The position numbers and the translations under genes were made by a program. The notes beneath the pieces are model-generated. The model had not been told where the DNA came from and ran no database searches. It worked only from the letters and a program-made list of their open reading frames with translations. Below are positions 19,801 to 48,974 of a stretch of DNA of 64,000 nucleotides, in pieces. Source of the DNA: a virus (Duplodnaviria > Caudoviricetes); IMG/VR virus record IMGVR_UViG_3300032007_004013, positions 20,020 through 84,019 of that record. One strand, written 5' to 3'. The stretch's first letter is position 1. Each line of letters opens with the position of its first letter.

Positions 19801-20176
19801 CCGCTGCAAGAGATAGTACGCTATCAATACCTGCAAGCATTTGGGTTGCGTCCCAGCCAGCCATAGCCATGTATTTGAACGCTTCTGCTGACTCACTTGC
19901 TGTAAATTTGGTGGAGGCACCGAGATCTTTTGCTTTTTCTGTAAGTGCATCAAGTTCTTTACCTGTTGCTCCTGAAATAGCTTCTACCTGAGACATCGCA
20001 GCTTCAAAGTCTGAGCCGACCTTTATTGCGTATGTTCCAAGACCAACAAGCGCAGTTCCTGCCGTTGTGACAGCTGTGGAGATTCCTTTTATCAGGCTTG
20101 TACCTAATTTCGCTAATCCTGTTTTTAGCCCACTTTGGTCTAATTCGGTATCAATAACAACAGAGCCGTCAGCCAT
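16835..20176 (-). CDS. Tape measure protein (TP901-type)
   Basis: MADGSVVIDTELD start; FEAAMSQVEAISGATG..STKFTASE; long 11-residue amphipathic repeats (LPxIIxAIVxA). Confidence 0.95.
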   Translation of the reverse strand: MADGSVVIDTELDQSGLKTGLAKLGTSLIKGISTAVTTAGTALVGLGTYAIKVGSDFEAAMSQVEAISGATGKELDALTEKAKDLGASTKFTASESAEAFKYMAMAGWDATQMLAGIDSVLSLAAASGEDLATTSDIVTDAITAFGLKAEDCSHFADVLAIASSNANTNVSMMGETFKYVAPVAGSMGIGIEETAEAIGLMANAGIKSSMAGTTLRQILSRLATDAGASSSKLGALGVLTEKLGVQFYNADGSVRNLNDVLSEARVAWSKLSDEEQANYAKTIAGQQGLAGWNALMNASTEDINKLRGAIENCDGAAEDMAATMMDNLQGDITILKSATEGFGIALYDVLNGANAAGDGVGMLRDFVQEATSIVDELREAVKSGGFEGLADALGGALAKAINKIVQYVPKFVEMGVKVVSSLVQGLAESAGSIAESVSNLIPIFIDGILSITANLVELGGKLIIALCDGLAKNSQQIFTTLFNGLINLANAVTEYLPLAVNHGIMLIESLVKGLVDALPTLIEALPGIISAVVDGITSMADQLITAVEVIVITIANALPDLVKSIVDKLPELVYKILDGVLGMIPTIIECITTIINAIVEVLPDIVNAIVDILPEIIKKIVQAITDNLPKIVQAVVSLISGILDALPDIIKAIVGAIPDLVKGIVTAIVDCLPQIIDAIAQIIEAIVEELPALLEALIELLPEIIGAIVEAIIELLPVLIDGVIQLIEGLVEALPEIITAIVEALPDIIKSIVDAIVAAIPVLIEGVIQLINGIVEALPQIITSIIEALPTIISSIITGIISLLPVLIEGLIQLVLGIVEAIPKIIVALIEALPQIIEAVITGLIEALPQLILGLIQLVLGIVEHLPEIITGLIEALPDIIDAVITGLIEALPQLIEGLIMLNVELVKHTPEIIAAIIEAIPRIIDSIMESFGQIVGRMVELGGRMLEGLWEGIQNLGGWLWDQVSGFFGGLWDNICGFFGIHSPSTLFRDMIGKNLVLGLAEGIAEEGYAALNAMEDVAEGIAGVEFKTADIDFDDILSDFDNVVVEERKYTNAISGNPEPSGGSDDSYPGDDGDYDDDAPRVIKGDVYFDDVKVGRVLAPVVAQEIDWEAK

Positions 20177-29396: not shown

Positions 29397-30905
29397 TTAC
29401 TTTGATTCTTTTCCTGCTGATTTTGTTTCCTTTGCGTTGACATCTTCCTTCTGCTTCTCCTTGTCTTCGTCTTCATCTCCGTTTGCGATCTTTGCGAAAC
29501 CGAGGATTTCATTGTCTGAAACCCCATCCATTTCATCGCATATTTTCCTTGCTGTGATTTCGTCTTCACCGTACCACTTCATTCTGTATTGGTACTTAGG
29601 CATAAGCTTTTGAGCGACTTCGTTTTGATCTCTCATTCGCTCAACTTCAGCGTCGATAACGATGCTGTCATCCCATACATACGTTGTGTTGTACTTGCCG
29701 TTCGGAGCGAGATTGTAGAGGGTAGCGAGGGCATACATGGCGTAAACGAGATCGTCGAGAGCATACTCAAGCGACTTCTGAATATCGGTAACAGTGGAAT
29801 ATGATCGCTGCTTGACTATCTTGATTTCCGTAGCGCTTCTTGCTACAGTGTCAACATCTGAGAGTGTTCCTCTCGACAAACAGCAAGCGTCCTCTATCTG
29901 TAGGAGGATTCTGTTCAGACCTGACATGTAGTTGGCATCACGAAGGGACGGAGCCCATTCTTTCATTAAGCTGTCGGTGCTCGCGGTAGCAGAGTCGAGA
30001 TTGTTGGTTCTGTACAATCGCTCTTTTCCTTTGGGGAGAACAGGCATTCCGTTTACTCTCCTGAAAGCGTCCTCAGCTGCGTCGATGGCGAGTTCACCGC
30101 CTTCGTACTCCCAAAGCAACCTACTGTACTGTTCGTCAGCGTCTTTGATAAGGTTGACTGCTCTTGCGTAAACAGAAACACCGAGAGGCGAGTTTTTATC
30201 TACCGTATTGCCTATCGGAATTTTGAAGTAGGCGAAAAGCGGTGACTCTATATCGTTGATCGTTACTTCCGGTTCAATATCAGCCCAATCATCGACTTCT
30301 GAAAGCTGACACGGTGTACCAATCGCTTCTTCTACGGACGAAACATACGCTTTGTTCGTTATAGTGTAATCTGTTCCGTTGAGTTCATGGCGTTCAAGTC
30401 TGCTGTAGACTTTCCTACCCTTCCAACTGCGGTATAGGAAGTACGCGGCAGTAATCTTGCCGGAATTGTTGTACGCAAGAGGGCAGAAGTAATCAGCCTG
30501 AACAACCTCCGTGATTATTCTTCCGTCAGAAACATAGGGCTTGAAGACGATTCCGCCACCTGCACAGGCGTATTCCGTGTTGACCCTTATATTCTTTCTG
30601 ACCGATTGGAGCTGATCGCTGATAAAATCAGCCATCTCGGAACCTGAGACGTTTACTTCCATTTCAAGTGTGACAGATCTCGCTATATCAGAAGCGATGA
30701 TCGCAGGCAGACCAAGCGTGATGGGATTATTCTTTAACCATTTCGCTTCATTGGAGAACATCGCCAGCCAATTCGTTATAGCATCCATCATGTCTGTTGA
30801 AGCTATCGTCTGTTCTTTTGTGACTTCAGCGATGCTCCGCATTACATTTCCACCTTTGAACATCGTTCTTATCCTCCCGAAAAACTCTTTGATTCTTTCA
30901 AACAT
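29397..30905 (-). CDS. Portal protein (SPP1/A118-like)
   Basis: AGGGIVFKPY; SPLGVSVYARA..LIKDADEQYSRLLWE; ARSATEI. Confidence 0.92.
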   Translation of the reverse strand: MFERIKEFFGRIRTMFKGGNVMRSIAEVTKEQTIASTDMMDAITNWLAMFSNEAKWLKNNPITLGLPAIIASDIARSVTLEMEVNVSGSEMADFISDQLQSVRKNIRVNTEYACAGGGIVFKPYVSDGRIITEVVQADYFCPLAYNNSGKITAAYFLYRSWKGRKVYSRLERHELNGTDYTITNKAYVSSVEEAIGTPCQLSEVDDWADIEPEVTINDIESPLFAYFKIPIGNTVDKNSPLGVSVYARAVNLIKDADEQYSRLLWEYEGGELAIDAAEDAFRRVNGMPVLPKGKERLYRTNNLDSATASTDSLMKEWAPSLRDANYMSGLNRILLQIEDACCLSRGTLSDVDTVARSATEIKIVKQRSYSTVTDIQKSLEYALDDLVYAMYALATLYNLAPNGKYNTTYVWDDSIVIDAEVERMRDQNEVAQKLMPKYQYRMKWYGEDEITARKICDEMDGVSDNEILGFAKIANGDEDEDKEKQKEDVNAKETKSAGKESK

Positions 30906-30918
30906 TGTCCGTCACCTT

Positions 30919-32871
30919 TTATATAAATCTCGCTGCTTCTCTCTCTATCGTGTACTCAAAGGCGTTGAGTGTACCCGTTTCAGAGTTTGCACTTCTACTG
31001 TCATCTGTGCTCTTTTCAGACCAAGTGGCAGTAGTAAAGGCTCTTGCAAGTGTTTCGCAATCTTCCGTAAGGAATAAGCGATTCTGAGCAAAGAGCCTTG
31101 TTGTCAATCTTATTCTGTTGTTTACATCATCATCTGCCGCAGTTCGCACTGTGATCGGAATGTTGTACTTGTCAGCAGAGTCCCTGATACACTTGAACAG
31201 GAATCTTTCTTTTGAATCACAATAAGCGTAATCAAGCTTGTTGTGGCGCTTTTGGATCTCACGACAAAAATCATTAAATTCTTTGCCAAGAGCATTTGTT
31301 TCAACTTCTCCGGTAAATGTCTTTGAAGCCAAAACAACAACTCTCTTGTGATTTTCTATGATGGCTGTGGCAACGATGGAGGTTCCTGAAACGGAGCTTC
31401 CTATGCTTATGCCGATGTTCACCTGCATAATGTGCATAGCGTGTACAGCACTGATAGGAATAATGACGGTTTCTGCGTTGTCGATAAATCCGTTGTAAAC
31501 CTTATTCTGAGTGAAGCAAGAAAGACCAACAGCGTCTCCTCTATCAGGTGACTTAATTCCTCTTGCTTTCATTTCTTTCTTGCTTTCAAGCTGTAGTCTG
31601 CCATTGCTTGATATATGGTATTTCCTAACAGACAGTTGAGCAACAAGTTCTTCGTCGTTAGGAATAGAGATAGCTCTGCTTTCCATCTTGTCTTTAACTG
31701 TTGCCCACATATATGTAGCAATGTCTCCGTAGTGTTCTTCAGAACCGTCTTGTGGAGGGTTCTTTCCGAAGTTGACAGGTACTATTTCGAGCCGCCTTAA
31801 CCGCTCCTCCACCTTAACTTCTTCAAGCCTATCTGTAACACCGCCGCCAAGACCTGTATCATCTATGTTGCAGGTGATAACTCCTTTGTACTGCGGATAG
31901 TCTTTTACCAACTTCCTGTACTGTATTACAATGTCACCGACAGTAGCCATAAGGTTTTGTCCGTGCCTGATTACAGGGAGCTTTATCATTCCTCCAACAT
32001 TGGTAGCGATAATGGTTTCATCATCTCCGTATCGAGCTACGTCAACACCAATGGAGATCCTGTCGATCTTCTCTATTTCGATTTCGTTGATGATCGTTTG
32101 CTCGACGAGGGGGAGAGGAATAAATACATCGTCTTCTTGCGTAGGGAAATCTCCGAGAACACGGACCTTCACTACGTTGCTTTCTTCGCCATACTTTCGT
32201 ATGAGAGTTTCTATGCTTTGTTTGTTTGTTCTTTTGCTGTAAAGAGAATTGACCTTGTGGCACTTGTAAAGCGCCCTATCTCTGTTGTGACTGTCATAAA
32301 ACGCTCCTGTTGTTCTTGTAGGGTTTCCGCACATAAGGAGCTTGTTGTTTGCGCCTGTGAGCGTACCAAATACAGGCTCAAGGACTTCATCTGAAACACC
32401 GGATGCTTCATCAATGATGAACAACATGTTGTCTTCGTGGAAGCCTTGCATGTTCTCAGGCTTTGATGCTGTCTTTGCGACAGCAAACCATCTGCTTTCG
32501 CAGCCGCGCATAGCAACGTGCGTTTTTGTCCATACAAGTAATGCGCTTGCGAGTTCGCTTCTATCTATCCACTTTCTGACCTCAGACCAGAGAACATCGC
32601 TTAACTGTTGAGCTGTAGGAGCTGTAGCGACCACTCTCGCGTTTTCAAAACACGATAAAAACCATATAATCAGATTTGCTTCAAGGCAGGTCTTTCCAAC
32701 GCCTTGTCCTGATCGTACAGATACTCTCGGACTTGAAGCTATATCCAAAGAAACGTTCTTTTGCCATTCATCAGGATCGAAATGCGTTACTTCGTCGAAG
32801 AACACTGTCGGTTTTTTCTGATAAATAGTCATTCTTTCGTTCAGAAAGGATTTTCTTTGATTCGACTTCAT
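30919..32871 (-). CDS. terL: Terminase large subunit with extra C-terminal nuclease-like domain
   Basis: Walker A SGQGVGKT, Walker B IIDEASG, nuclease GVDVARYGDD..DDTGLG..SPDRGDA. Confidence 0.93.
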   Translation of the reverse strand: MKSNQRKSFLNERMTIYQKKPTVFFDEVTHFDPDEWQKNVSLDIASSPRVSVRSGQGVGKTCLEANLIIWFLSCFENARVVATAPTAQQLSDVLWSEVRKWIDRSELASALLVWTKTHVAMRGCESRWFAVAKTASKPENMQGFHEDNMLFIIDEASGVSDEVLEPVFGTLTGANNKLLMCGNPTRTTGAFYDSHNRDRALYKCHKVNSLYSKRTNKQSIETLIRKYGEESNVVKVRVLGDFPTQEDDVFIPLPLVEQTIINEIEIEKIDRISIGVDVARYGDDETIIATNVGGMIKLPVIRHGQNLMATVGDIVIQYRKLVKDYPQYKGVITCNIDDTGLGGGVTDRLEEVKVEERLRRLEIVPVNFGKNPPQDGSEEHYGDIATYMWATVKDKMESRAISIPNDEELVAQLSVRKYHISSNGRLQLESKKEMKARGIKSPDRGDAVGLSCFTQNKVYNGFIDNAETVIIPISAVHAMHIMQVNIGISIGSSVSGTSIVATAIIENHKRVVVLASKTFTGEVETNALGKEFNDFCREIQKRHNKLDYAYCDSKERFLFKCIRDSADKYNIPITVRTAADDDVNNRIRLTTRLFAQNRLFLTEDCETLARAFTTATWSEKSTDDSRSANSETGTLNAFEYTIEREAARFI

Positions 32872-33326
32872 CGATCAGAGTCCTTTTCATTGTTAGTTTT
32901 GCTTGCGTTCTTTACAGCGCTTATCCAATCATCAACAGCATTGTTGCTTTTGTCTTCTTTGAGCACGGTCCTCTTGTGCCTTTCCACTTCGAGCTTGAAC
33001 TTCGGAGAAATGCCAGCCATTTCAACCAGAAAGTTCATCGCGTTTACATCTCCACCCATAGCTTTCAAGAAAGCTCGCGCCATCATAGCTACAATATTGG
33101 TGTAATCTTCTTCATTATCAAGACCTAATGCTTCGAGATTTCGTGTTACAGTCTCCGTTGTCGGAAGTTCGAGAATTAGCTTTGCGGCGGATTTGGCATC
33201 TCGCTTCTTTCGTCTTGCGACTCCGCTTGCCTTTCCGCCTTTGGAGCGAATTTCTCTCTGTTCTTCCTCTGTTCGTTCGTCAAAGGGGATAAGGTTATCA
33301 TCACGAGCCAAATCTATCACCTCCAA
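32868..33326 (-). CDS. terS: Terminase small subunit (putative)
   Basis: NLIPFDERTEEEQREIRSKGGKASG start; immediately upstream of terL. Confidence 0.75.
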   Translation of the reverse strand: MEVIDLARDDNLIPFDERTEEEQREIRSKGGKASGVARRKKRDAKSAAKLILELPTTETVTRNLEALGLDNEEDYTNIVAMMARAFLKAMGGDVNAMNFLVEMAGISPKFKLEVERHKRTVLKEDKSNNAVDDWISAVKNASKTNNEKDSDR

Positions 33327-33352: not shown

Positions 33353-34474
33353 TTATCTGACAACTTTGAGTTCGAGAGGCTCGTTGATAAAGTGGTTTTC
33401 AAGAGCTATCGTATAAGCTCCGCAGTTGGCAAATGTAAGCGTATCTCCAACAGATAATTCTCCCGTGAAACCTCTATAGACTATATCGCTCTCCATACAG
33501 GAATAGCCGAGCAGATCGACTCCTTGAAGGGATATTTTCTTGTTCGATGTGTGAGAAACGTCCATCGGAGGGTTTGCTTTACGGTTGGTAAATCCGAGGT
33601 CAAACATTGAGCAATCAAGCGTTACAAACTTTTGACCTCTTATCGTTTTGATGTTTGTAACGTGCGCTCTGAGTTTTATCGCGTTGGCGATCAACGGTGT
33701 TCCGAGCTCAAGGATAATCTTCGGTGCATTTCCATCAGGAAACTCTCTTGCCAATGCTTCTGCGGTTACTCTTGCATAATCGTCGAATGTAGGGATATTT
33801 CCGCCAAACCACTCTACGAGCCTTTCGTCCATAAACCCGTACATTCCGCTTCCTAAGTCGATGTAGCGAACGCCGAGCATCTTTCCGATGGAAGCCATCA
33901 TATCTACACGCGGCTTGTAATATACAAGGTCTCTCGTACCGTATGCGTGGTTATGGATGCCTTTCAGTACGAGGTTGGTGCTCAATCCAAGAAAATCAAT
34001 GCACTTGTAATAATCTTCGCTTTTGTACTCAATGCCGAATCGAGAGTTTATTCCGTTGCCAACGTCAATGTTGAGCCGGAGACCGATGGGGAAGACGCTG
34101 TTTCTCCTGATAACCAACTGATTCTTCATCTTTCCTATGTAGTCGTCGATTTCGACAAGCTCGTCATAGTTGTCTACATTGACAATTCCTCCGTTTACCA
34201 GAAGTAAGCACTTGCCGTGTGTGTCCGGTATAACGCCGTTGTAGATGATTTCTGAGCTTTTATACCCGATAGACAAAGCCTTGCAATATTCGTTCTTTGA
34301 CACAACCTCTGCGTAAACTTCGTTTCTTCTTATCTCCTGAAGCACTTCATAGTGAGAGTTTGTCTTAAAGCTGTACGACAAAGCAAGATCAACGCCTGCT
34401 TCTTCGTATGCTCGCTTAACTTCTTTTACGTTTCTTTCGAGCACACGCTTACTAAAAAGATAGTACGCATTCAT
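33353..34474 (-). CDS. PLP-dependent fold-III decarboxylase (DAP/Orn/Arg decarboxylase family)
   Basis: YSFKTN (PLP lysine), LRLN, IDLGSG, GYSCMESD, GAY; start MNAYYL at 34474 with GAGG RBS. Confidence 0.88.
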   Translation of the reverse strand: MNAYYLFSKRVLERNVKEVKRAYEEAGVDLALSYSFKTNSHYEVLQEIRRNEVYAEVVSKNEYCKALSIGYKSSEIIYNGVIPDTHGKCLLLVNGGIVNVDNYDELVEIDDYIGKMKNQLVIRRNSVFPIGLRLNIDVGNGINSRFGIEYKSEDYYKCIDFLGLSTNLVLKGIHNHAYGTRDLVYYKPRVDMMASIGKMLGVRYIDLGSGMYGFMDERLVEWFGGNIPTFDDYARVTAEALAREFPDGNAPKIILELGTPLIANAIKLRAHVTNIKTIRGQKFVTLDCSMFDLGFTNRKANPPMDVSHTSNKKISLQGVDLLGYSCMESDIVYRGFTGELSVGDTLTFANCGAYTIALENHFINEPLELKVVR

Positions 34475-34485
34475 ATTAACCTCAT

Positions 34486-34516
34486 AAAAAAAGCAGCCGC
34501 ACTTTCGTGAGACTGC
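34486..34516 (-). terminator. Intrinsic terminator with GAAA tetraloop
   Basis: GCAGTCTCAC-GAAA-GTGCGGCTGC then T7 on minus strand. Confidence 0.7.
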
Positions 34517-34533
34517 TCTTTGCTGTTTTTTCG

Positions 34534-35229
34534 TTACCAAATTGGATCTTTTATTTCCATATCCTCACCGAAGTGAGTCGGATCGAGTTCTCTTTGACGT
34601 TCAAAGTCCCTTACTCTCGGAATCGTTGCTCTGTCAATCCTTCCTTCGTCGATGTCTCTCTGGTTGGATATCTCCCAACTTCCGTTATCGAAAAGAGAGA
34701 GTTGCAACGGCTTCAATGCAGCTTGTTCATCAACGATCATGTCGAACTCTGTCTTGCCTTTTCTTCTTCCTTCGTAGGTGTGAACGTCAAAAACCCAATC
34801 GGGTACTCCTTCAACGCCAAGTTCAGCTTCATCTATGTTGCTGATGTATTCGTTCGGGATCTCTTCCGGTCTCAGCGTTCTTACCATACTCATAAAGTTG
34901 CAGGCTACGTAACAGGCATCCCTGTTCTTTCGAGCCATACATAAAAGCGTTACCGCTTTGCTGAGGAAGATCGAATCTCTGTCGTAGCCTTTTCTGCCTT
35001 TGTTTACGGTGTCGTCGGCTATCTTCAAAGCAACGATCTCCTTTGTCATCACTCCGTAGCAATCTTCAGCAGAGATTACATAGAGGCGTTTCCAGAGATA
35101 ATCAGGGAACTTACCTCTCAGTTCTTTGGCAGCAAAGGCTGCTCTGTTGATGTCTGCCCGTCTGATTGCTTTCTGAAGCATACTTGACATTGTGTACATA
35201 CTGTAACCGCCGTCTGTCATTAACTTCAT
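34534..35229 (-). CDS. MgsA/RarA C-terminal-like helical protein lacking an AAA domain
   Basis: SMLQKAIRR..LWKRLYVISAED..; PDWVFDVHT; no Walker A. Confidence 0.7.
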   Translation of the reverse strand: MKLMTDGGYSMYTMSSMLQKAIRRADINRAAFAAKELRGKFPDYLWKRLYVISAEDCYGVMTKEIVALKIADDTVNKGRKGYDRDSIFLSKAVTLLCMARKNRDACYVACNFMSMVRTLRPEEIPNEYISNIDEAELGVEGVPDWVFDVHTYEGRRKGKTEFDMIVDEQAALKPLQLSLFDNGSWEISNQRDIDEGRIDRATIPRVRDFERQRELDPTHFGEDMEIKDPIW

Positions 35230-35266
35230 TACATTACCTCGTTTCTTTGTATTATTTGGTACTTTT

Positions 35267-35295
35267 ATTCTACCACAAATTAACTCTTGCGTCAA
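35267..35295 (-). promoter_or_regulatory. SigA-type promoter
   Basis: TTGACG-N17-TAGAAT with extended TG. Confidence 0.75.
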
Positions 35296-35323
35296 TAATG
35301 TAATAAGATTTTTTAATCTTAAC

Positions 35324-36055
35324 TCAACGGTTTACTAATATTTTGGGAACGTTCTTGTTCGCGTTGTAATCAAAATACTTTCCCCACTTAGCTTTCATCA
35401 TCTCAACTGACGCTGCGATGTCTTCTCGGTTGTAGCTTGATCCCGTGGTGTTCGTGATGTCATCTTCTTGCGGATTGTCAACGAGGTACTTTGCGTTCAG
35501 GCACACTCTGTTAAGCAGAAGCTCCGTGAGAACATAGTCAATATCGGTGTTGCGAGGAAGTTCTGTGTCCATTCTCGCTTTGATACATTTTCTGTTCACT
35601 ACCTTGAACGCTCCGGGGATCCCGTACCAGCCAAACTCGCTTGTATACACATAAGGAGTAGGTGTAGCGGAGCCAAAAGCAACTCCAATATCGAGATCGT
35701 AGATAAGTTGGGCAAGACGTTCAAATTCAGCTTGGCACGTCTCTACATCATCAATAGAGTAGTTCCTCTCTAACCTGTAGATGAAATTCTTTACATCATC
35801 ATCTACTATCGCTACTACATCTTCTTCTGCGTTATCGACAATCCAATTATAGACTTTGGAATACTGATTGATTTCTTCGTCTTCAACTCCGATAACGTTA
35901 GGAAAACCTGCGTTAATGTAGAGCTGTTCCTGCGACTTTCTTACGATATGCTTTGGGTTTTCAAACCACTTTCCGGTGATGACTCCTCTTTCGTACCTTC
36001 CTACTGACGGAATGTACACGCCAAAGGTGAAGTTACCATCTGCCACGAGGGACAC
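35324..36055 (-). CDS. GT-A glycosyltransferase (TET/JBP-associated/GREB1-like family)
   Basis: VYIPSVGR N-terminal strand, IVDDD motif, TDIDY, MMKAKWG. Confidence 0.75.
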   Translation of the reverse strand: MSLVADGNFTFGVYIPSVGRYERGVITGKWFENPKHIVRKSQEQLYINAGFPNVIGVEDEEINQYSKVYNWIVDNAEEDVVAIVDDDVKNFIYRLERNYSIDDVETCQAEFERLAQLIYDLDIGVAFGSATPTPYVYTSEFGWYGIPGAFKVVNRKCIKARMDTELPRNTDIDYVLTELLLNRVCLNAKYLVDNPQEDDITNTTGSSYNREDIAASVEMMKAKWGKYFDYNANKNVPKILVNR

Positions 36056-37112
36056 CGTCCTTTTCGTACAACGTGCCGTAGTTCCGCATTAACCTCATGC
36101 CGTATTCAGGCGTAATGTTTTCGTCGATTTTAATGCCAAGGGCGTGTTTGATACCAAGCTCGACAAGATTGAGACCGGCTTTGGCCGTGAGAGAAACGGT
36201 AGCGCTTATCCTCGGATTGATTTCGAGGAGGAAGAGCTTTCCATCATCTCTTCTGATGAAATCATATCCGATATTGCCGTCAAGCTCGAACAGCTCGTTG
36301 AGCTTCGTGACGATTTCGTTCGCTTCCTTGCTTTCGATCAACTCACAGTAGGTAGAAGTGGCAAATTCCATCTTCATATTTCTGTGAGTTACAGCGTACA
36401 CGGTTCTTCCGTGATCTACGAGGCAAATGGTGCTTCCTTCTGTTCCGGAAACGTGTTCCTGAAGCATAAAATCTTCGCCGATGTCGTCGATAGCAAGTTC
36501 AACCTGTGCTTTCGACGTGTACTTGTTAGCTCTGAGGTCTCTCGTTCTGGCGAAGACGCTTTTCTTTGCCATCTCGTCGTCGATGACTCTGAAGCCTGAA
36601 GCGCCGCAACCATCAACTCTCTTGATGCAGACAGGCTTGTCGGGATAACCGAGTGCGTAAAGCGCCTCCTCCCAATTATCCTTGTTGACCTTGATCGCTT
36701 TTGGCATATAGAAGAGGGAACGGCTTTCGAGGAATTGCATGAGCATGTATTTGTTGTTGGCGATGTCAAGCTTATCTTTGTTGCCGGAAAGAGAAACTTT
36801 AATGCCGTTCTTTTCAAAATCATCTCTGTGAAGACTGATGATGTCGATTTCGTCGCTGATAAGCGGTATCACAAGCTCAACGCCTGTTGCTTTGCATATG
36901 CGAAGAAGCTCCGGAATGTATTCTTTGTCGTCGTATCTCGGAACTTTGCAGAGTACATCGACGTAATTAGCTGCGGCAGGATTCGGGCTGCAATCCACGC
37001 CGATGATTTTGAAATCCAAATCTCTGCTTTTTCTCAACGTGTCTATGGTTCCGCAGGTGGGCCATCCGCAGCAAGCGGTGAACAAAACGGTTACTTTTCT
37101 TTTGTCGATCAT
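36033..37112 (-). CDS. ATP-grasp ligase (carbamoyl-phosphate-synthase-like family)
   Basis: IIGVDC..ANNKY..VCIKRVDGCGASG..MLQEHVSGTE..LLEINPRISA. Confidence 0.88.
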   Translation of the reverse strand: MIDKRKVTVLFTACCGWPTCGTIDTLRKSRDLDFKIIGVDCSPNPAAANYVDVLCKVPRYDDKEYIPELLRICKATGVELVIPLISDEIDIISLHRDDFEKNGIKVSLSGNKDKLDIANNKYMLMQFLESRSLFYMPKAIKVNKDNWEEALYALGYPDKPVCIKRVDGCGASGFRVIDDEMAKKSVFARTRDLRANKYTSKAQVELAIDDIGEDFMLQEHVSGTEGSTICLVDHGRTVYAVTHRNMKMEFATSTYCELIESKEANEIVTKLNELFELDGNIGYDFIRRDDGKLFLLEINPRISATVSLTAKAGLNLVELGIKHALGIKIDENITPEYGMRLMRNYGTLYEKDGVPRGRW

Positions 37113-37717
37113 TGTGTAGCTTCTCCTTTATTCTCTTCTTTGCCGAACAGTTTCTCTCTGATTTTGTGATACCAAACAGCTCTTCCTTGAATCTTTCTTT
37201 TGTTCGTAACGTATACAACAGCGCCTTGTATTCCGAGTTTGGAAACAAGTTCGTCGTAGTCAAAGGAGTCTTTGCAGGCTATGAGAATGTAGTCGTATTT
37301 CTCGTAGTGAAGAAGCTCCATCTCGTTGATTTTTCTGTCGCCTACCTTTTTGTTGGATTCGGTGATTCCGAGATCTACGCTAAGATCAGCCGTCCAGTCA
37401 GCGAGCACATCGTAGTCCCATTCACCTGCGTGGGTGTTGGCTTTGATGTTGATTGCTCTCTTTTCGGCAGTTGAATAGCCGACAATTCTTTTGCACAAAA
37501 CAGTTGTGTCGGGGCTTTTCTCCAACAGAACACTGCACCGCTGATTTCCTGCGATGATGTTGTTGTCCTCGTCTATGACGATAAGCCCAAAATCTCCAAA
37601 AGTGTCGAGCGAACGTTCAAGTTCATCTCGTTTGCCTTTGGAGATCTTTCTCGGATTGCCAAATCCGGTTTTGAGGTCGCCTACTTTTAATTCGACGACT
37701 TCAATGCTTTTTTTCAT
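37109..37717 (-). CDS. ParB/Srx N-terminal domain protein
   Basis: NPRKIS..SLDTFG..IVIDEDNNIIAGNQR..IKANTHAGEWD. Confidence 0.85.
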   Translation of the reverse strand: MKKSIEVVELKVGDLKTGFGNPRKISKGKRDELERSLDTFGDFGLIVIDEDNNIIAGNQRCSVLLEKSPDTTVLCKRIVGYSTAEKRAINIKANTHAGEWDYDVLADWTADLSVDLGITESNKKVGDRKINEMELLHYEKYDYILIACKDSFDYDELVSKLGIQGAVVYVTNKRKIQGRAVWYHKIREKLFGKEENKGEATQ

Positions 37718-37728
37718 TTGTATTCCTC

Positions 37729-38841
37729 CTATATCTGCTTTTCAGCAAGCTCAATGGCGTTTAATATAGTGTCGTCCATGTCGTAGTATCTGTAGTCTCC
37801 CGTCCTTCCTGCGAATATGATATTATCTTTTCCTTTTGATAAACGCTTGTATTCAGCGTATATGGCGTTGTTTACGTAATTGTTGATAGGATAGTAGGGT
37901 TCGTTGAGATCATCGTGTATGGCTGGATATTCGCGTGTAATCACCGTTTTACCGTTGTTGATGGGATTGGTGGAGAAGTGTTTGTGTTCAACTATCCTTG
38001 TGAACGGAATGTTTCTTTCGGTGTAGTTCACAACTGCGTTGCCTTGATAGTTGTCAACTCCTGAAATGGTTTCCTCTTCAAATCTGAGCGATCTGTATTC
38101 CAGCCTACCGAACTTATAGTCAAAGTATTCGTCGATCTTGCCTGTATAGATAATCTTCTTTGCTATAAGTTCATATTCTTCCTTGAATGGCGTGTTGAGG
38201 ATAACGTCTGCATTACTCAACAACTTGCTGAAGATTTCTGTGTAACCGTTTTTCGGGATTCCCTGATATCTGTCGTTGAAATAATCATTCCTGTATGTAA
38301 ACCTCAAAGGCAATCTGCTGATAATGTCAGGCGGCAGATCTGAACATTTTTTGCCCCATTGCTTTTCTGTATAGCCTTTTACGAGCATGTTGTAAATCGT
38401 ATCGCCTACAAGGGAGATCGCTTTCTCTTCGAGGTTCGATGGTGTTCCGGTGAAGCTGATGTCAGCTTTTATTCTTTCAATCGCTTCTGCGGGAGATGTT
38501 ACGCCAAATATCTTGGCAAACGTATTCATGTTGAATGGTAGGTTGTAACTTTGCCCTTCATAGATCGCTATAGGAGCGTTTATGAACGGCGTAAACTTGG
38601 AGAAGGAGTTTATGTATTGCCAGACCTTTTCGCTATCTGTATGGAAGATGTGAGGACCGTATTTGTGTACATGTATTCCTTCGATCTCTTCCGTATAGCA
38701 ATTACCGCCGATATGGTTCCTCTTGTCGATAACAAGACATCGTTTTCCGTGCGCTGATGCTATCTGGCAAAATACAGAACCAAACAACCCAGCTCCAACT
38801 ATCAGAAAGTCGTAGCTCAAATGTACCATCTCCAAAAGCAA
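37729..38841 (-). CDS. glf: UDP-galactopyranose mutase (true start probably TTG at 38820)
   Basis: IVGAGLFG, HIGGNCY, HKYGPHIFHT, RLPLRFT, LEYRSLRFE, EPYYP, GRTGDYRYYDMD. Confidence 0.95.
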   Translation of the reverse strand: MLLEMVHLSYDFLIVGAGLFGSVFCQIASAHGKRCLVIDKRNHIGGNCYTEEIEGIHVHKYGPHIFHTDSEKVWQYINSFSKFTPFINAPIAIYEGQSYNLPFNMNTFAKIFGVTSPAEAIERIKADISFTGTPSNLEEKAISLVGDTIYNMLVKGYTEKQWGKKCSDLPPDIISRLPLRFTYRNDYFNDRYQGIPKNGYTEIFSKLLSNADVILNTPFKEEYELIAKKIIYTGKIDEYFDYKFGRLEYRSLRFEEETISGVDNYQGNAVVNYTERNIPFTRIVEHKHFSTNPINNGKTVITREYPAIHDDLNEPYYPINNYVNNAIYAEYKRLSKGKDNIIFAGRTGDYRYYDMDDTILNAIELAEKQI

Positions 38842-40681: not shown

Positions 40682-41200
40682 CTATTTGTTCATTTTGTTC
40701 CATAATCGAATTACAACATTCTTTATTTGCGACTCTCTTGTTCCTGCGCCGCAATGATAACAATACGCAGCATAGATCGTAGTCTCTAAAAATGGATTAA
40801 CAGATTTGCTTATGCGTATATCTGTGCTTCCGCACTCTTTGCACGGATTGAGCTTTGCAATATCTTTATCAATATACTCTCCTCCTGTCTCAATAAGGGA
40901 CTCAATTTCGTGGAATGTGTATCTTCCAGCAAGCCTTTTCAGCCCGTCTCTGAGTTCGATCATCATTTTCTTGTTTTGATCGTCAACTATAACTGAGGTG
41001 GCTCGCATTTTGCAGTTGTCGCCTTTGTATCTAACAGGAATGAGTTCGCCTAATTCGCATGGAAGGGTTATCGTTCTTTCTTTATCACGGAAGTGGCAGC
41101 ATGGTTTAGGGTATTCCGATTCAGTGAAAACTTCATATACGCCTGACGCGAATCCGCACACTTCTTTGTGAATGCAATCTTCACACGTTTTGTTATCCAT
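40682..41200 (-). CDS. CxDCxHxxxC-start protein with C-terminal Lar-like domain
   Basis: TCEDCIHKEVC..LPCELG..LNPCKECGS..CYHCGA..IRLWN. Confidence 0.7.
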   Translation of the reverse strand: MDNKTCEDCIHKEVCGFASGVYEVFTESEYPKPCCHFRDKERTITLPCELGELIPVRYKGDNCKMRATSVIVDDQNKKMMIELRDGLKRLAGRYTFHEIESLIETGGEYIDKDIAKLNPCKECGSTDIRISKSVNPFLETTIYAAYCYHCGAGTRESQIKNVVIRLWNKMNK

Positions 41201-41459
41201 TCTTTTCTTCCTCAAGCTTTTTGGTAAGAGCGTAACCTTCAAGCTCCCACAGCTTGTTGGTGATTCGTTCCATACAAATATCCTTGCCGATCTCCTCGTC
41301 GTAGTTGGCAGGATCAACGGCTGCGCTTGATTCTGTGATAACAAATCCGTTCGGAAGCTTGCAGCATACAACCGTAGCTTTGCCGTAAACGGTCCTTACG
41401 TCGATTTCTGAGTTCGCAATCAAATCCTTGATCTGCTGCTCTGTTACTGTGTTTTTCAT
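41193..41459 (-). CDS. N4 Gp49/Sf6 gp66-family protein
   Basis: VVCCKLPNGFVITESSAAVDPANYDEEIG..KLWELEGY. Confidence 0.85.
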   Translation of the reverse strand: MKNTVTEQQIKDLIANSEIDVRTVYGKATVVCCKLPNGFVITESSAAVDPANYDEEIGKDICMERITNKLWELEGYALTKKLEEEKNG

Positions 41460-41470
41460 AACTTTCACCT

Positions 41471-42022
41471 TTAACCTTTCTTGTTGATATATTCTGAGAA
41501 GACAGGCATATCAAAGCAATCTTCATACGCCGCGAGCCTGCTCCTTAATTCCGCTGCCTGAACTGCTACAGTGTAGCAAACGCCGTAGATACAATCTCCT
41601 GCATTGCACTCTATGCAAGCACCATCTTCTATTGATTCTGCGCTTACTCCGCAGTGTTCTTTTGCTTCTTGCGCTATGTATTCGCACAAGTCCATGTCGT
41701 CTTTTCCGTTCGCGTGTCGTAACACAACGCGTCCGTCTTTTGCATAAGCGTAATTCATCATTGCGCTTGTGTAGTTATCAGGTTCTTCTTGCGTGAGCCT
41801 GTAGGGGAAGTTGGGGAGAGCAGACAAGTCTTCAACCCTGTTATTCCACATCTCGATAGCTTCTTCTCTGTCTTTCGCTGACATACAACAAGTGCAGTTA
41901 CACTCAACGAAACATTCACCTTCGCAATCTGGCAAGCCGGGCAGCATGTGCGTATGAGGCTGTATTTCGTTTAGATATGGCGTTCTTCCGCAAAACGGAC
42001 ACGGCTTTAATTCATTTTCCAT
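41471..42022 (-). CDS. Lar-like restriction-alleviation domain fusion protein
   Basis: ELKPCPFCG..EAIEMWNNR plus C-terminal RLAAYED. Confidence 0.7.
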   Translation of the reverse strand: MENELKPCPFCGRTPYLNEIQPHTHMLPGLPDCEGECFVECNCTCCMSAKDREEAIEMWNNRVEDLSALPNFPYRLTQEEPDNYTSAMMNYAYAKDGRVVLRHANGKDDMDLCEYIAQEAKEHCGVSAESIEDGACIECNAGDCIYGVCYTVAVQAAELRSRLAAYEDCFDMPVFSEYINKKG

Positions 42023-42035
42023 TGTCAACCTCCCT

Positions 42036-42314
42036 TTACTTGTGAAATATAACACCTATTTGAGTTTGTTTAGCGTTGTCTTCGCCTTTTTGCTTTTGTT
42101 TGATTCTCAAAAGCTTGTGACTTTTTGTACGGCGGTTCCATACGGAAATCGCACGTTCTTTGTCTGTAGTTATAAGCGTACCAATGTTGCAAACATTACA
42201 CTGAACTTGCCAGAAACTATTGTAAGCTTGATGCAGTTTAGCTTTTCCTCCGCAGAACGGACAAGGTTTTAGCTTGTTACTATTCTCGGCTTTCATTGTC
42301 ATCATCATCGTCAT
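42036..42314 (-). CDS. Lar-family restriction alleviation protein
   Basis: LKPCPFCGGKA..VQCNVC..AISVWNRR. Confidence 0.75.
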   Translation of the reverse strand: MTMMMTMKAENSNKLKPCPFCGGKAKLHQAYNSFWQVQCNVCNIGTLITTDKERAISVWNRRTKSHKLLRIKQKQKGEDNAKQTQIGVIFHK

Positions 42315-42558: not shown

Positions 42559-42699
42559 TTAAAAAGTTACAGCCGCGTTGAGGACGGCTGCTGCAAGCCA
42601 ATATACAGCCATTTTGTACTCTCGATTGATGATGTTGGTGATTGCCGCACCAATGTCAAGAGCGATCATAATAACAGGGAAGATGCAGGTAGGTTTCAT
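42559..42699 (-). CDS. Small two-TM membrane protein (46 aa)
   Basis: MKPTCIFPVIMIALDIGAAI..YWLAAAVLNAAVTF; GGAGG RBS. Confidence 0.6.
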   Translation of the reverse strand: MKPTCIFPVIMIALDIGAAITNIINREYKMAVYWLAAAVLNAAVTF

Positions 42700-43514
42700 G
42701 TTCTATACCTCCACCAATCAAGCTGTTGACCGCAGTGATCGCAATGGCTCTGATACTTATGCGGAATACTGCACCAACATTCGGGGCAGGTGTAAACATC
42801 AACTCCATTATCGTCGACGAACAGTGGTTCTTTTTCGATGTACTGAAGCCGAATAGCGGAAATCGCCGTCAGAACAGCTTTGTGCTGTTCTGAAGAATTA
42901 CACTTGATTCTTTTAAGGCGCTCTATAGCCGATTCAGGAGGAGTCAACCGTCTGATCTTTGATTTCTTTCTGATTGTAGGATTCGCAACAGCAGCCCACT
43001 CATAAGCATCTACTATATCGAAGATCTTTGAGTAGCAAAGCTTTCCGTCGTACATTTCTCCTTTTTTGTGTCCACAGATGTGGATGTCTTTACCACAAAT
43101 GCTGCACATTCTATTTTCAACAGAACAGCCTATGCTGATTTCCGAAACCCTTCCGTTTTTGATGTCTGAAACTGTATCAACTGTATTCTCGTTTACAGGA
43201 ATAAAGGCTCGTGCGACAAGCTTGTAGTAATCATCACCTGCTTTAGTCTTTTTACCGGGAACACTTTCTACTCCGCATACAAATATTCTCGCTGTACTGT
43301 TTTTACTTGATGGGGATTTTTCCAATATTCCGGTTTTTCCTACAAACAGTCTTTCGAGTTCGCGGAGAGCTTCTACAGAGAACGCTTCATTATCTCCGTC
43401 TACATCGTTGTCGCAGAGGTTTACTGTGAACACATAAACTTCATCAGCTTTGTACTTCCGATTTGCAAAGCGGTTTATGTACTCAAGCTCTTTTTCAGCG
43501 TAACCTTCTAACAT
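42696..43514 (-). CDS. Prohead-protease-like domain fused to Zn-ribbon
   Basis: YVFTVNLCDNDVD..LFVGKTG..EISIGCSV..CSICG..CGHKKG..DAYEWAAVANP; C-terminal CPEC..CDHCGQQLDW. Confidence 0.6.
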   Translation of the reverse strand: MLEGYAEKELEYINRFANRKYKADEVYVFTVNLCDNDVDGDNEAFSVEALRELERLFVGKTGILEKSPSSKNSTARIFVCGVESVPGKKTKAGDDYYKLVARAFIPVNENTVDTVSDIKNGRVSEISIGCSVENRMCSICGKDIHICGHKKGEMYDGKLCYSKIFDIVDAYEWAAVANPTIRKKSKIRRLTPPESAIERLKRIKCNSSEQHKAVLTAISAIRLQYIEKEPLFVDDNGVDVYTCPECWCSIPHKYQSHCDHCGQQLDWWRYRT

Positions 43515-48003: not shown

Positions 48004-48255
48004 TCACCTGTCCTTGTGGTATGTTTTCAATGAGCCATCAGCGTTATAGAGTGGGGAGAAAACGCCGTCTTTTGATGAAACATACATAACATTCGTTTCT
48101 TTATCGTAGAAGGTTCTGTAGTCATAAGCTCCACTTACATCTATGCACACGAGAGTGTCTCCTGCGTCATCGAAGTTTTCTGCATCGCAGGCAGTCATGC
48201 TTAACGCGAGGAAGCAGACGCAGAGCATTGCAACAAGCATCTTTTTCATTGTCAT
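48004..48255 (-). CDS. Small lipoprotein (DUF6440-like)
   Basis: Lipobox MTAC; YDKETNVMY..PLYNADG. Confidence 0.7.
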   Translation of the reverse strand: MTMKKMLVAMLCVCFLALSMTACDAENFDDAGDTLVCIDVSGAYDYRTFYDKETNVMYVSSKDGVFSPLYNADGSLKTYHKDR

Positions 48256-48974
48256 TTCTTCTCCATTTCTGCCCGGAGGCTGTCTTTGATGTAGTAATCG
48301 AGTCCGATCTTCTGAAATAGAGCTTCAGCTTTTCTTCCAAATTCCGCCCAATCAATGTCCGACTTGTGGTAGTTAAGCTTTCCTATTTTTACTTTGTCGA
48401 AAGCGGAAGAAAAGCAAGAAAACGTAGTCAAAACATATTCATCAACTACAGGTTCAAGCGAAATCCAAGTTCTTATCCCTTGAGCTTTTGCTTTTTCTGC
48501 TATTCCCACTCTATAATACGGGTTTTTGGCTCCCGGCTCACACGGACAAATCGCTCTGAAATCTAACGTGGTGTTGAAAGTCGATACCGAAACTCCATAC
48601 CAATCGTTTTCATCGAGTAGATCAAAATCCCTGCTTCCATCGCCTTTCGTTAGTATCTGAACGTGATTACCACTTTCTTTGAGAATCTTGATTATCTCCC
48701 TTGTAGGCGTTGAATCATATCCAGTGGGGTAGGGATCGCAGGTAAAACACAGATGAATCAGCTTTCCGGTGATATGCTCTCTTTCGATCTGTTTCTTTGT
48801 TTCCTCAACTATGTTTTTTCGCGGCTCCACAATGTTATGGAACGTTTCTTTGTCGCGGTGCAGAACATTTGGAGCAAAACAGTAAAAACACCTGTGCGGA
48901 CATCCGGTGTAGATGTTGAGCGCGAGATCACCGTACTCTTTTGCCGCTCCTTTAGGTTCGTATATTGGTTTCAT
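48252..48974 (-). CDS. Radical SAM protein
   Basis: NIYTGCPHRCFYC (CxxxCxxC); CFTCDPY; ILTKG; WISLEPV. Confidence 0.88.
   Translation of the reverse strand: MKPIYEPKGAAKEYGDLALNIYTGCPHRCFYCFAPNVLHRDKETFHNIVEPRKNIVEETKKQIEREHITGKLIHLCFTCDPYPTGYDSTPTREIIKILKESGNHVQILTKGDGSRDFDLLDENDWYGVSVSTFNTTLDFRAICPCEPGAKNPYYRVGIAEKAKAQGIRTWISLEPVVDEYVLTTFSCFSSAFDKVKIGKLNYHKSDIDWAEFGRKAEALFQKIGLDYYIKDSLRAEMEKK

Follow-up and report, generated by a model that had tools for sequence, protein, structure and literature searches.

To our knowledge, phage DNA is glycosylated only after a hydroxylated pyrimidine has been made, either by a homologue of thymidylate synthase or by a dioxygenase of the TET/JBP type. 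The pre-replicative pathways give glucosyl-5-hydroxymethylcytosine in T4 and arabinosyl-5-hydroxycytosine in RB69 and DLP3 (Lee 2026, PMC13326640). The post-replicative hypermodification clusters associate 5mYOX, a TET/JBP-like dioxygenase, with or without a C5-methyltransferase, to a ParB-like activator and to a glycosyltransferase (GT) of the GT-A/TAGT kind (Burke 2021, PMC8256090; Pyle 2023, bioRxiv 10.1101/2023.12.21.572611; O'Toole 2026, PMC13229309). In the last of these papers, phage ParB-like proteins devoid of a DNA-binding domain are described as activators of a DNA thymine dioxygenase on double-stranded DNA, and dioxygenase/ParB pathways co-occur with GTs in 31% and with terminases in 19% of cases. 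Pyle 2023 also indicates that about 65% of the phage contigs containing a GT are without 5mYOX or ThyS and are less obviously linked to DNA. We analysed a stretch of 64,000 nucleotides of viral DNA (Duplodnaviria; Caudoviricetes), hereafter the window, which covers positions 20,020 to 84,019 of the IMG/VR record IMGVR_UViG_3300032007_004013, and we focused on a cluster of six genes that lies directly ahead of the terminase genes. This cluster belongs to the known class of phage glycosylation and hypermodification clusters and falls in the large coherent part of the GT contigs left unexplained by Pyle et al. It is one version of a widespread and apparently uncharacterised phage glycosylation module heading the packaging operon.

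A three-gene core ahead of the terminase genes

The cluster occupies positions 38841-33353 of the minus strand and is made of six co-oriented open reading frames (ORFs) whose overlaps or gaps range from 4 to 94 bases. They encode, in this order, a UDP-galactopyranose mutase (Glf), a ParB-like protein, an ATP-grasp ligase, a TAGT-like GT of the GT-A type, a protein related to the C-terminal domain of MgsA (MgsA_C-like) and a fold-III decarboxylase dependent on pyridoxal phosphate (PLP), and they are followed by a gene resembling that of the small terminase subunit (terS) and by the genes of the large terminase subunit (TerL) and of the portal protein (Table 1). An earlier interpretation of the same DNA, made without database searches and called below the sequence-only reading, had listed five enzyme-like genes at this place. 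All five were found on the minus strand where it had put them, but the MgsA_C-like gene, which brings the number to six, had been overlooked.

The gene neighbourhood was surveyed in about 160 viral loci from two starting points, the GT (83 loci) and the MgsA_C-like protein (78 loci), and the neighbours were clustered. The MgsA_C-like gene was located directly downstream of the GT in 80 of the 83 GT loci, and a ParB-like gene upstream in 72 of them. Conversely, a GT was found in 61 of the 62 viral MgsA_C-like loci that had at least 2.5 kb of upstream DNA. Minimal modules consisting of these three genes only also occur (L155-L160). The conserved unit is thus composed of the ParB-like protein, the GT and the MgsA_C-like protein, and the set formed by Glf, the ATP-grasp ligase and the decarboxylase is one of several interchangeable tailoring sets. 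Since it recurs in about 160 independent viral loci, this arrangement is far beyond what chance would produce. Glf was present in only 7 of the 83 GT loci.

The core precedes terS and TerL genes of the window's own type, of the Terminase_6N/6C, TerL_ATPase and Terminase_3 types, and of a type combining Terminase_6N and Terminase_3C. It is carried by prophages of Clostridia, Bacteroidales, Treponema and Selenomonas and by cultured lytic Microbacterium phages. The idea of a functional cluster linked to packaging, which had been put forward from the window alone together with the caveat that related clusters might show no conserved terminase linkage, was supported by the survey: the linkage holds across at least four terminase families.

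The genes that accompany the core vary. The genes ahead of the GT in most gut and rumen loci encode a protein resembling WbqC (66 loci) and a de-N-acetylase, PIG-L (62 loci); a PseB/CapD-like dehydratase was seen in 21 loci and a PglD-like acetyltransferase in some, and the tailoring genes of other lineages consist of a Mur ligase with a GNAT protein or of a UDP-glucose dehydrogenase-like gene. The commonest form in IMG/VR reads ParB, (PglD-like), PIG-L, WbqC, TAGT-like GT, MgsA_C-like, terS. The ATP-grasp protein and the decarboxylase, encoded in 13 and 8 of the 83 GT loci respectively, were near-constant companions in the survey based on the MgsA_C-like protein (30 and 29 of 78 loci). This pair is joined by Glf in about 7-8 of the surveyed loci, in varied gene orders and in some cases with PIG-L. 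On a short contig from soil or sediment (L094:43-1421), a distant MgsA_C-like homologue (E 8.5e-37 with the family profile) comes right after a GLF-domain gene, which suggests that the association with Glf recurs beyond the lineage of the rumen and gut. L002 (IMGVR_UViG_3300028242_002437), the viral locus most closely related to the cluster, encodes a thymidylate-synthase homologue (L002:1595-2500; PF00303, E 7e-52), which may be a plain ThyA or else a hydroxymethylase or hydroxylase. Its gene precedes the module by 2.3 kb, and the module there includes a Mur ligase, a decarboxylase, an ATP-grasp protein and a GNAT protein.

Cultured relatives were sought among 50,697 phage records. Neither megablast with the 9.4-kb region nor tblastn with the GT, the ATP-grasp protein and a WbqC-type GT gave any match in these records, and the MgsA_C-like protein alone was matched, in Microbacterium and Arthrobacter phages. 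In lytic Microbacterium phages of cluster EC, the right genome end carries, in this order, a ParB-like gene, a gene for a GT of 247 residues, a UDP-glucose dehydrogenase-like gene and an MgsA_C-like gene annotated 'AAA-ATPase'; terS lies at the left end of the same genomes. Homology to the window proteins holds for all three core proteins: the ParB-like protein of phage Paschalis is 28% identical to that of the window (E 2e-13), its 'AAA-ATPase' gp87 is 40% identical to the MgsA_C-like protein (E 4e-39), and the Microbacterium GT is 24% identical to the window GT (E 3e-4), the two being aligned at their DDD motifs by hhalign (E 4e-5). The published description of the cluster EC phages lists these genes and gives no function for them (PMC7302621). 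Given that these phages are cultured, lytic and endowed with a homologous core, the question of the target can be addressed directly at the bench.

Families, folds and origin of the cluster proteins

The sequence-only reading had described the GT as TET-associated-type. Both sequence and fold point to the group formed by TAGT proteins and T-even beta-glucosyl-hydroxymethylcytosine-alpha-glucosyltransferases (beta-glucosyl-HMC-alpha-GT). The window GT matches the TAGT family (PF20691) only over its N-terminal 100 residues and with a score of 20.2 bits (E 6e-4), below the cut-off of 27.5, while its orthologue in L002, 73% identical, reaches 27.8 bits. TAGT is matched at E<=0.01 by 16 of 21 members of the GT family, the best E value being 2.4e-6, and it is the sole Pfam family with consistent matches. 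The window GT also matches phrog_842, annotated 'beta-glucosyl-HMC-alpha-glucosyltransferase' (E 4e-8). Its AlphaFold2 model adopts a GT-A fold (predicted local distance difference test 86.2, predicted template modelling score 0.86) and carries a DDD motif at residues 85-87, of which D86 and D87 are invariant in the family. Its best matches among the viral models of BFVD are TAGT-domain proteins and the T-even beta-glucosyl-HMC-alpha-GT (TMq 0.68-0.75, E 1e-13 to 1e-8), and an Atlas search gave 0.98 to viral clusters related to GREB1 and TAGT. Compared with the solved structures of the PDB, the model matches generic GT-A enzymes, with a best TMq of about 0.55, and a sequence search against PDB chains returned no usable match for the GT. 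At high identity the family comprises 31 clusters, one of which comes from a prophage of Selenomonas ruminantium TAM6421. A search with the family profile recovered at least 176 IMG/VR contigs and genomes of 32 bacterial species, the latter corresponding to prophages of Lachnospiraceae, Oscillospiraceae, Ruminococcus, Faecalibacterium, Treponema, Bacteroides and Parabacteroides.

The ParB-like protein matches phrog_620 (E 2e-22) and aligns with the N-terminal part of phrog_498, annotated 'DNA methyltransferase' (E 8e-20). It appears to be composed of an N-terminal domain of the nucleotide-binding type, with NPRK and GNQR motifs in the sequence, and of a short C-terminal part. No match was obtained in Pfam, helix-turn-helix and other DNA-binding domains included, and a sequence search against PDB chains returned nothing usable. 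The protein is 62-63% identical to its counterparts in the related loci L002 and L003, and its gene lies 3.8 kb upstream of terS.

The third core protein owes its name to MgsA, a replication and repair protein of the AAA+ class that is the source of the MgsA_C domain. It matches phrog_16866 (E 1e-35) and scores 17.4 bits with the MgsA_C family PF12002, under the cut-off of 27, and a profile of its family retrieves 2r9g from the PDB (E 4e-4). The predicted model consists of helices only, and its similarity to the C-terminal domain of MgsA/RarA spans residues 1-103: the model superimposes on 2r9g (VIA; Z 11.9, root-mean-square deviation 1.9 Å over 89 residues) and on E. coli MgsA 3pvs (Z 11.2, 2.0 Å over 90 residues). 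The C-terminal half contains conserved DxHT and GxxxGKT motifs; the model has low confidence there and no fold match was assigned. The protein is not a RarA orthologue, because the AAA+ ATPase domain is absent. We also considered a divergent TET/JBP dioxygenase at this place, which was ruled out by the all-helical model, without jelly roll, and by the assignment of the N-terminal half to MgsA_C. The family amounts to 554 representative clusters at E<=1e-10, and the ten longer homologues inspected for domain fusions showed no Pfam domain other than MgsA_C.

The assignment of Glf is at the equivalog level, with 401.6 bits for TIGR00031 against a cut-off of 303.75, supported by matches to PF03275 (E 1e-73) and PF13450 and by the GxGxxG motif for binding of flavin adenine dinucleotide in the N-terminus (IVGAGLFG). 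The true start is likely to be either the TTG at 38820, 9 nucleotides after a GGAG, or the ATG at 38829. The Glf protein of the S. ruminantium TAM6421 prophage is 49% identical to that of the window.

The two remaining enzymes were assigned above family cut-offs. The ATP-grasp protein combines a PylC-like N-terminal domain with an ATP-grasp domain of the ATPgrasp_Ter type (PF15632, 65.1 bits, cut-off 29.1, E 7e-18; PF21360, 62.8 bits, cut-off 27, E 3e-17; PF02655, 50 bits, cut-off 23.2, E 5e-13), and the decarboxylase matches PF02784 (56 bits, E 5e-15) and PF00278 (28.4 bits). In the sequence-only reading, all key motifs of the cluster looked intact. This is mostly so: the GT has its DDD motif, and in the decarboxylase FKTN and SCMESD align to IKAN and VCESAD, which retains the PLP lysine and the active-site cysteine. 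The EPGR motif of the decarboxylase, however, reads ELGT, and its score with the lysA equivalog model, 101.9 bits, is far under the cut-off of 297.9. On this sequence basis, the enzyme is a fold-III decarboxylase resembling those of diaminopimelate and ornithine, and not LysA.

In cellular genomes, relatives of these two enzymes belong to surface-polysaccharide loci. The window ATP-grasp protein is 32% identical to genes of two such loci, L098 and L099, and the L098 decarboxylase, whose gene adjoins that of the ATP-grasp protein, is 32% identical to the window enzyme (E 4e-58); by comparison, the decarboxylase of the L002 type of phage is only 30% identical. The L098 locus is from Lachnospiraceae and encodes, in this order, a PseB-like dehydratase, PIG-L, the fold-III PLP decarboxylase, the ATP-grasp protein, a PglD-like acetyltransferase, a GT-B transferase, a flippase and Wzy. 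L099 encodes PIG-L and an ATP-grasp protein together with a set made of a UDP-sugar dehydrogenase, an aminotransferase and an acetyltransferase. The contiguous set of L098 running from the PseB-like to the PglD-like gene (L098:4099-9613, metagenome-assembled genome GCA_051880375.1) appears, from its gene content, to be an aminoacyl-amino sugar pathway, seemingly uncharacterised and the likely source of the phage genes. As the ATP-grasp protein and the decarboxylase are homologous to an adjacent pair in surface-polysaccharide loci, they most likely tailor the sugar and not the base. A recent capture from a host capsule locus, named in the sequence-only reading among the outcomes that would count against it, does not fit: with 32% identity, the pair is an old capture from polysaccharide loci. 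The decarboxylase was also considered as a recent copy of a host-type lysine/ornithine decarboxylase, in relation with the cadaverine of Selenomonas peptidoglycan; this candidate was set aside, the closest relative found being the polysaccharide-locus enzyme.

The source record is an 84-kb IMG/VR provirus with a completeness of 91% as estimated by CheckV, and the window corresponds almost entirely to a temperate prophage of siphovirus type encoded on the minus strand. The cluster and its surroundings are listed in Table 1.

Table 1. Features of the cluster and of the adjacent packaging genes, in window coordinates
Feature	Position	Strand	Basis
Promoter-like site, TTGAAT-17-TACAAT with TG	38915-38887	-	consensus scan; directly upstream of Glf
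Terminator-like hairpin and T run	38870-38843	-	consensus scan; directly upstream of Glf
UDP-galactopyranose mutase (Glf)	37729..38841	-	TIGR00031, PF03275, PF13450
ParB/Srx-like protein, 202 residues, core gene 1	37109..37717	-	phrog_620, phrog_498 (N-terminal part)
ATP-grasp amide ligase, accessory sugar-tailoring gene	36033..37112	-	PF15632, PF21360, PF02655
GT-A glycosyltransferase related to TAGT/GREB1, 243 residues, core gene 2	35324..36055	-	PF20691 (below cut-off), phrog_842, fold
MgsA_C-like helical protein, 231 residues, core gene 3	34534..35229 (ORF to 35295)	-	phrog_16866, fold
Fold-III PLP-dependent decarboxylase, accessory gene	33353..34540	-	PF02784, PF00278
Small-terminase-like gene	32868..33326	-	phrog_2412, E 2e-24 (function unknown), and position just before TerL; positional call
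Terminase large subunit (TerL)	30919..32871	-	phrog_2, E 7e-39; phrog_5902, E 2e-72; TIGR01547 on C-terminal part, E 3e-7
Portal protein	29397..30905	-	phrog_533, E 7e-120

The putative late promoter that had been invoked ahead of the cluster could not be verified, as promoter-like sites numbered 10 in the region against 10.2 in shuffled sequence. A hairpin with a stem of 12 bp lies less than 20 bases past the promoter-like site upstream of Glf, and its T run ends at the Glf start. This hairpin looks like a terminator or antitermination checkpoint heading the late operon; we treat it as a lead, promoter-like sites not being enriched. The region's top promoter-like site (TTGACG-17-TAGAAT with TG, 10/12, 35267-35295, minus strand) is located in the gap of 94 bases between the GT and MgsA_C-like genes, from where it might drive transcription of the MgsA_C-like gene and of the decarboxylase and terminase genes behind it.

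The early region upstream of the cluster codes for a replisome organiser, a DnaC-like loader, RecT, an exonuclease, RusA and Lar-like zinc-ribbon proteins, and YopX is among the matches of its ORFs in Pfam and PHROG scans. In three of its genes, which are neighbours, a short domain at the N- or C-terminus is joined to otherwise unassigned domains. Two of them (40682-41371 and 41471-42055, minus strand) carry Lar-like restriction-alleviation zinc ribbons (PF14354, phrog_599), and the third (42696-43514, minus strand) shows small matches to phrog_10714 and phrog_16351 at its C-terminus. A radical S-adenosylmethionine protein of 240 residues (48252-48974, minus strand; PF04055, E 1e-9; phrog_13321, function unknown) is also encoded there, and we saw no tie between it and the cluster.

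Target of the glycosyltransferase

We propose, with a probability of roughly one half, that the module glycosylates phage DNA late and after its replication, using a tailored sugar of the galactofuranose (Galf) type. In such a pathway, Glf would convert host UDP-galactopyranose, or UDP-N-acetylgalactosamine (UDP-GalNAc), into the furanose form, the ATP-grasp ligase would join an amino acid to the sugar by an amide bond, and the fold-III PLP decarboxylase would remove the alpha-carboxylate of the joined amino acid to leave an amine. The GT would then place the sugar onto its target late in infection, with the ParB-like and MgsA_C-like proteins acting as non-catalytic partners that deliver it to the substrate. 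The likeliest substrate would be the phage's own replicated DNA, shortly before or during packaging, and the modification might guard this DNA against host nucleases or mark it as self. A DNA target is favoured by the nearest relatives of the GT, which by sequence and model comparison appear to be phage DNA-type transferases, and by analogy with the ParB-like activators acting on double-stranded DNA in pathways that co-occur with GTs and terminases. It would also agree with the descent of the MgsA_C domain from a replication and repair protein, and the module stays with the packaging genes and not with those of the capsid or tail.

Several observations weigh against this proposal. Consistent with the sequence-only reading, which had recognised neither a TET/JBP enzyme nor a hydroxymethylase in the window, the entire 84-kb provirus record contains no match to Tet_JBP (PF12851) or ThyA (PF00303). 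Tet_JBP was equally unmatched in all 46 related viral records, of which 14 have a completeness of 90% or more; this negative is weak, as the control genomes gave no match at the threshold used either. ThyA was found in 1 of 47 records, namely the L002/L008 contig, using a search that matched 10 of 14 known control genomes. Neither a methyltransferase nor a kinase or dioxygenase turned up when 20 more ORFs of the early region were scanned with Pfam and PHROG. A new acceptor would therefore be needed, and we know of no precedent for canonical DNA bearing a sugar. All three core proteins are acidic, with isoelectric points of 4.7 for the GT, 6.35 for the ParB-like protein and 5.3 for the MgsA_C-like protein (family medians 5.5-5.8), which is unexpected for DNA binders, and the tailoring enzymes are of the cell-surface-glycan type. 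Moreover, Galf offers neither an amine nor a carboxylate to the ligase, and PIG-L, the companion of the ligase in several relatives, is absent here, so that the chemistry of this variant is incomplete; the mutase may use UDP-GalNAc, the amine being provided by a host deacetylase, or a different group may be the site of ligation. Our literature searches yielded no description of the three core proteins as a set, and neither a functional study of the module nor an experiment on any of its members.

A bolder and rather unlikely extension of the proposal is that the trio suffices by itself to glycosylate DNA, without any 5-hydroxymethyl or 5-hydroxy precursor. The sugar would be attached directly, by N- or O-glycosylation, to a canonical base or to the backbone, or else to an acceptor made by a new activity of the C-terminal half of the MgsA_C-like protein. 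In the window phage, the virion DNA would then bear a Galf-type sugar with an amide-linked decarboxylated amino acid. Such a chemistry of DNA modification would be undescribed to date, and it would occur in hundreds of gut, rumen and soil phages.

Some of the same evidence could be read in favour of proteins. Virion glycosylation has been reported in mycobacteriophages, and the module might attach sugars to phage proteins, be it of the capsid, tail, portal or terminase, while virions are being assembled in the cytoplasm. The ParB-like and MgsA_C-like proteins would then be adaptors or unrelated packaging factors. The acidity of the core proteins, the lack of a recognisable DNA enzyme making an acceptor and tailoring enzymes typical of surface and protein glycans would all suit this explanation, as would the co-expression with structural and packaging genes predicted from the operon layout. 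A relative of TAGT, GREB1, is reported to be a protein O-linked N-acetylglucosamine transferase (PMC7968844), and actinobacteriophage papers tie phage GTs to capsid glycosylation (e.g. PMC11256854). We nevertheless regard a protein target as unlikely: the near-obligate partners of the GT come from DNA-handling families (ParB/Srx-type and MgsA_C), its best fold matches are phage DNA-type GTs, and the module keeps its place before terS and TerL, away from the capsid and tail genes, while terminase and head types change.

A distinctly improbable explanation is that the product or substrate of the module is a soluble metabolite, for instance a nucleotide or nucleoside bearing a sugar, or that the module depletes the UDP-sugars of the host, thereby blocking receptor synthesis or countering a host defence, with the ParB-like protein supplying or binding the nucleotide. 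Among PDB structures, the GT is closest in fold to AvpGT, which was crystallised in the presence of the nucleoside Ara-A, but this match is weak (TMq 0.54) and equalled by other GT-A enzymes. The ATPgrasp_Ter type, to which the ATP-grasp domain belongs, is predicted to act in the synthesis of nucleoside-like metabolites. Binding of cytidine triphosphate by ParB N-terminal domains is also reported (PMC13229309), and Pyle et al. discuss sequestration of host sugars. Such a role would leave both the position before the terminase and the MgsA_C-like partner unexplained, and it is at odds with the minimal three-gene modules, which are without biosynthetic genes. Lysogenic conversion, by which the genes would change the surface polysaccharide, O-antigen or peptidoglycan of the host and exclude other phages, seems to us very improbable in spite of the presence of Glf, a classic surface-glycan enzyme, and of the closest cellular relatives of the ATP-grasp/decarboxylase pair in Wzy/flippase polysaccharide loci. 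No flippase, polyprenyl-phosphate transferase or polymerase is encoded in the module, membrane segments are absent from its six proteins, and the genes are located within the late packaging operon and not in a moron position. A homologous core is, in addition, present in the lytic Microbacterium phages, in which integrase and repressor are absent.

If DNA is indeed the target, as in the glycosylation pathway that we propose, the module would imply that the chemistry of the acceptor is new and that ParB-like and MgsA_C-like proteins have a role not seen before, and it could account for gut and rumen phages that resist restriction, CRISPR or sequencing. Were the target a protein, it would represent a widespread system of virion glycosylation extending beyond the actinobacteriophages.

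Relation to known systems

Compared with the common PIG-L/WbqC form, the window has the same three-gene core at the same position, with 41-46% identity between the GTs, and differs by Glf and the ATP-grasp/PLP-decarboxylase pair, which stand in place of PIG-L and WbqC. A fixed core combined with swappable sugar-tailoring sets is what an arms race over a glycan would be expected to produce. In the cellular cassette of L098, the ATP-grasp and decarboxylase genes are likewise adjacent, and the 32% identity of each protein extends over its full length. L098, however, includes Wzy, a flippase, an initiating transferase and GT-B transferases, and it is devoid of ParB, a TAGT-type GT, an MgsA_C-like gene and terminase. 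What our analysis adds is the variant with Glf, ATP-grasp ligase and decarboxylase and its cellular ancestry, the linkage statistics obtained in both directions, the minimal three-gene form and the experimental handle offered by the Microbacterium phages.

In T-even-type systems, phage GTs add the sugar late, on the DNA polymer, and the genes for the nucleotide sugars are borne by the phage; the fold of the window GT is similar to that of these enzymes. Those systems require a thymidylate-synthase homologue, which sets them apart from the 84-kb record and from all but one of the 47 records searched. The window phage is moreover temperate and seemingly without a DNA polymerase of its own, and it carries a replisome organiser and a DnaC-like helicase loader. 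The difference from the 5mYOX clusters lies in the dioxygenase and the methyltransferase, neither of which was seen in this phage or in the 46 related records, although the unmatched control genomes leave room for divergent dioxygenases. It lies also in the obligate third partner of the MgsA_C-like family, of which the sections searched in the 5mYOX papers make no mention. With these same clusters, the module shares a short ParB-like protein without a match to a DNA-binding domain, a GT-A transferase of the TAGT type, frequent adjacency to the terminase and sugar-modifying accessory genes taken from host glycan pathways.

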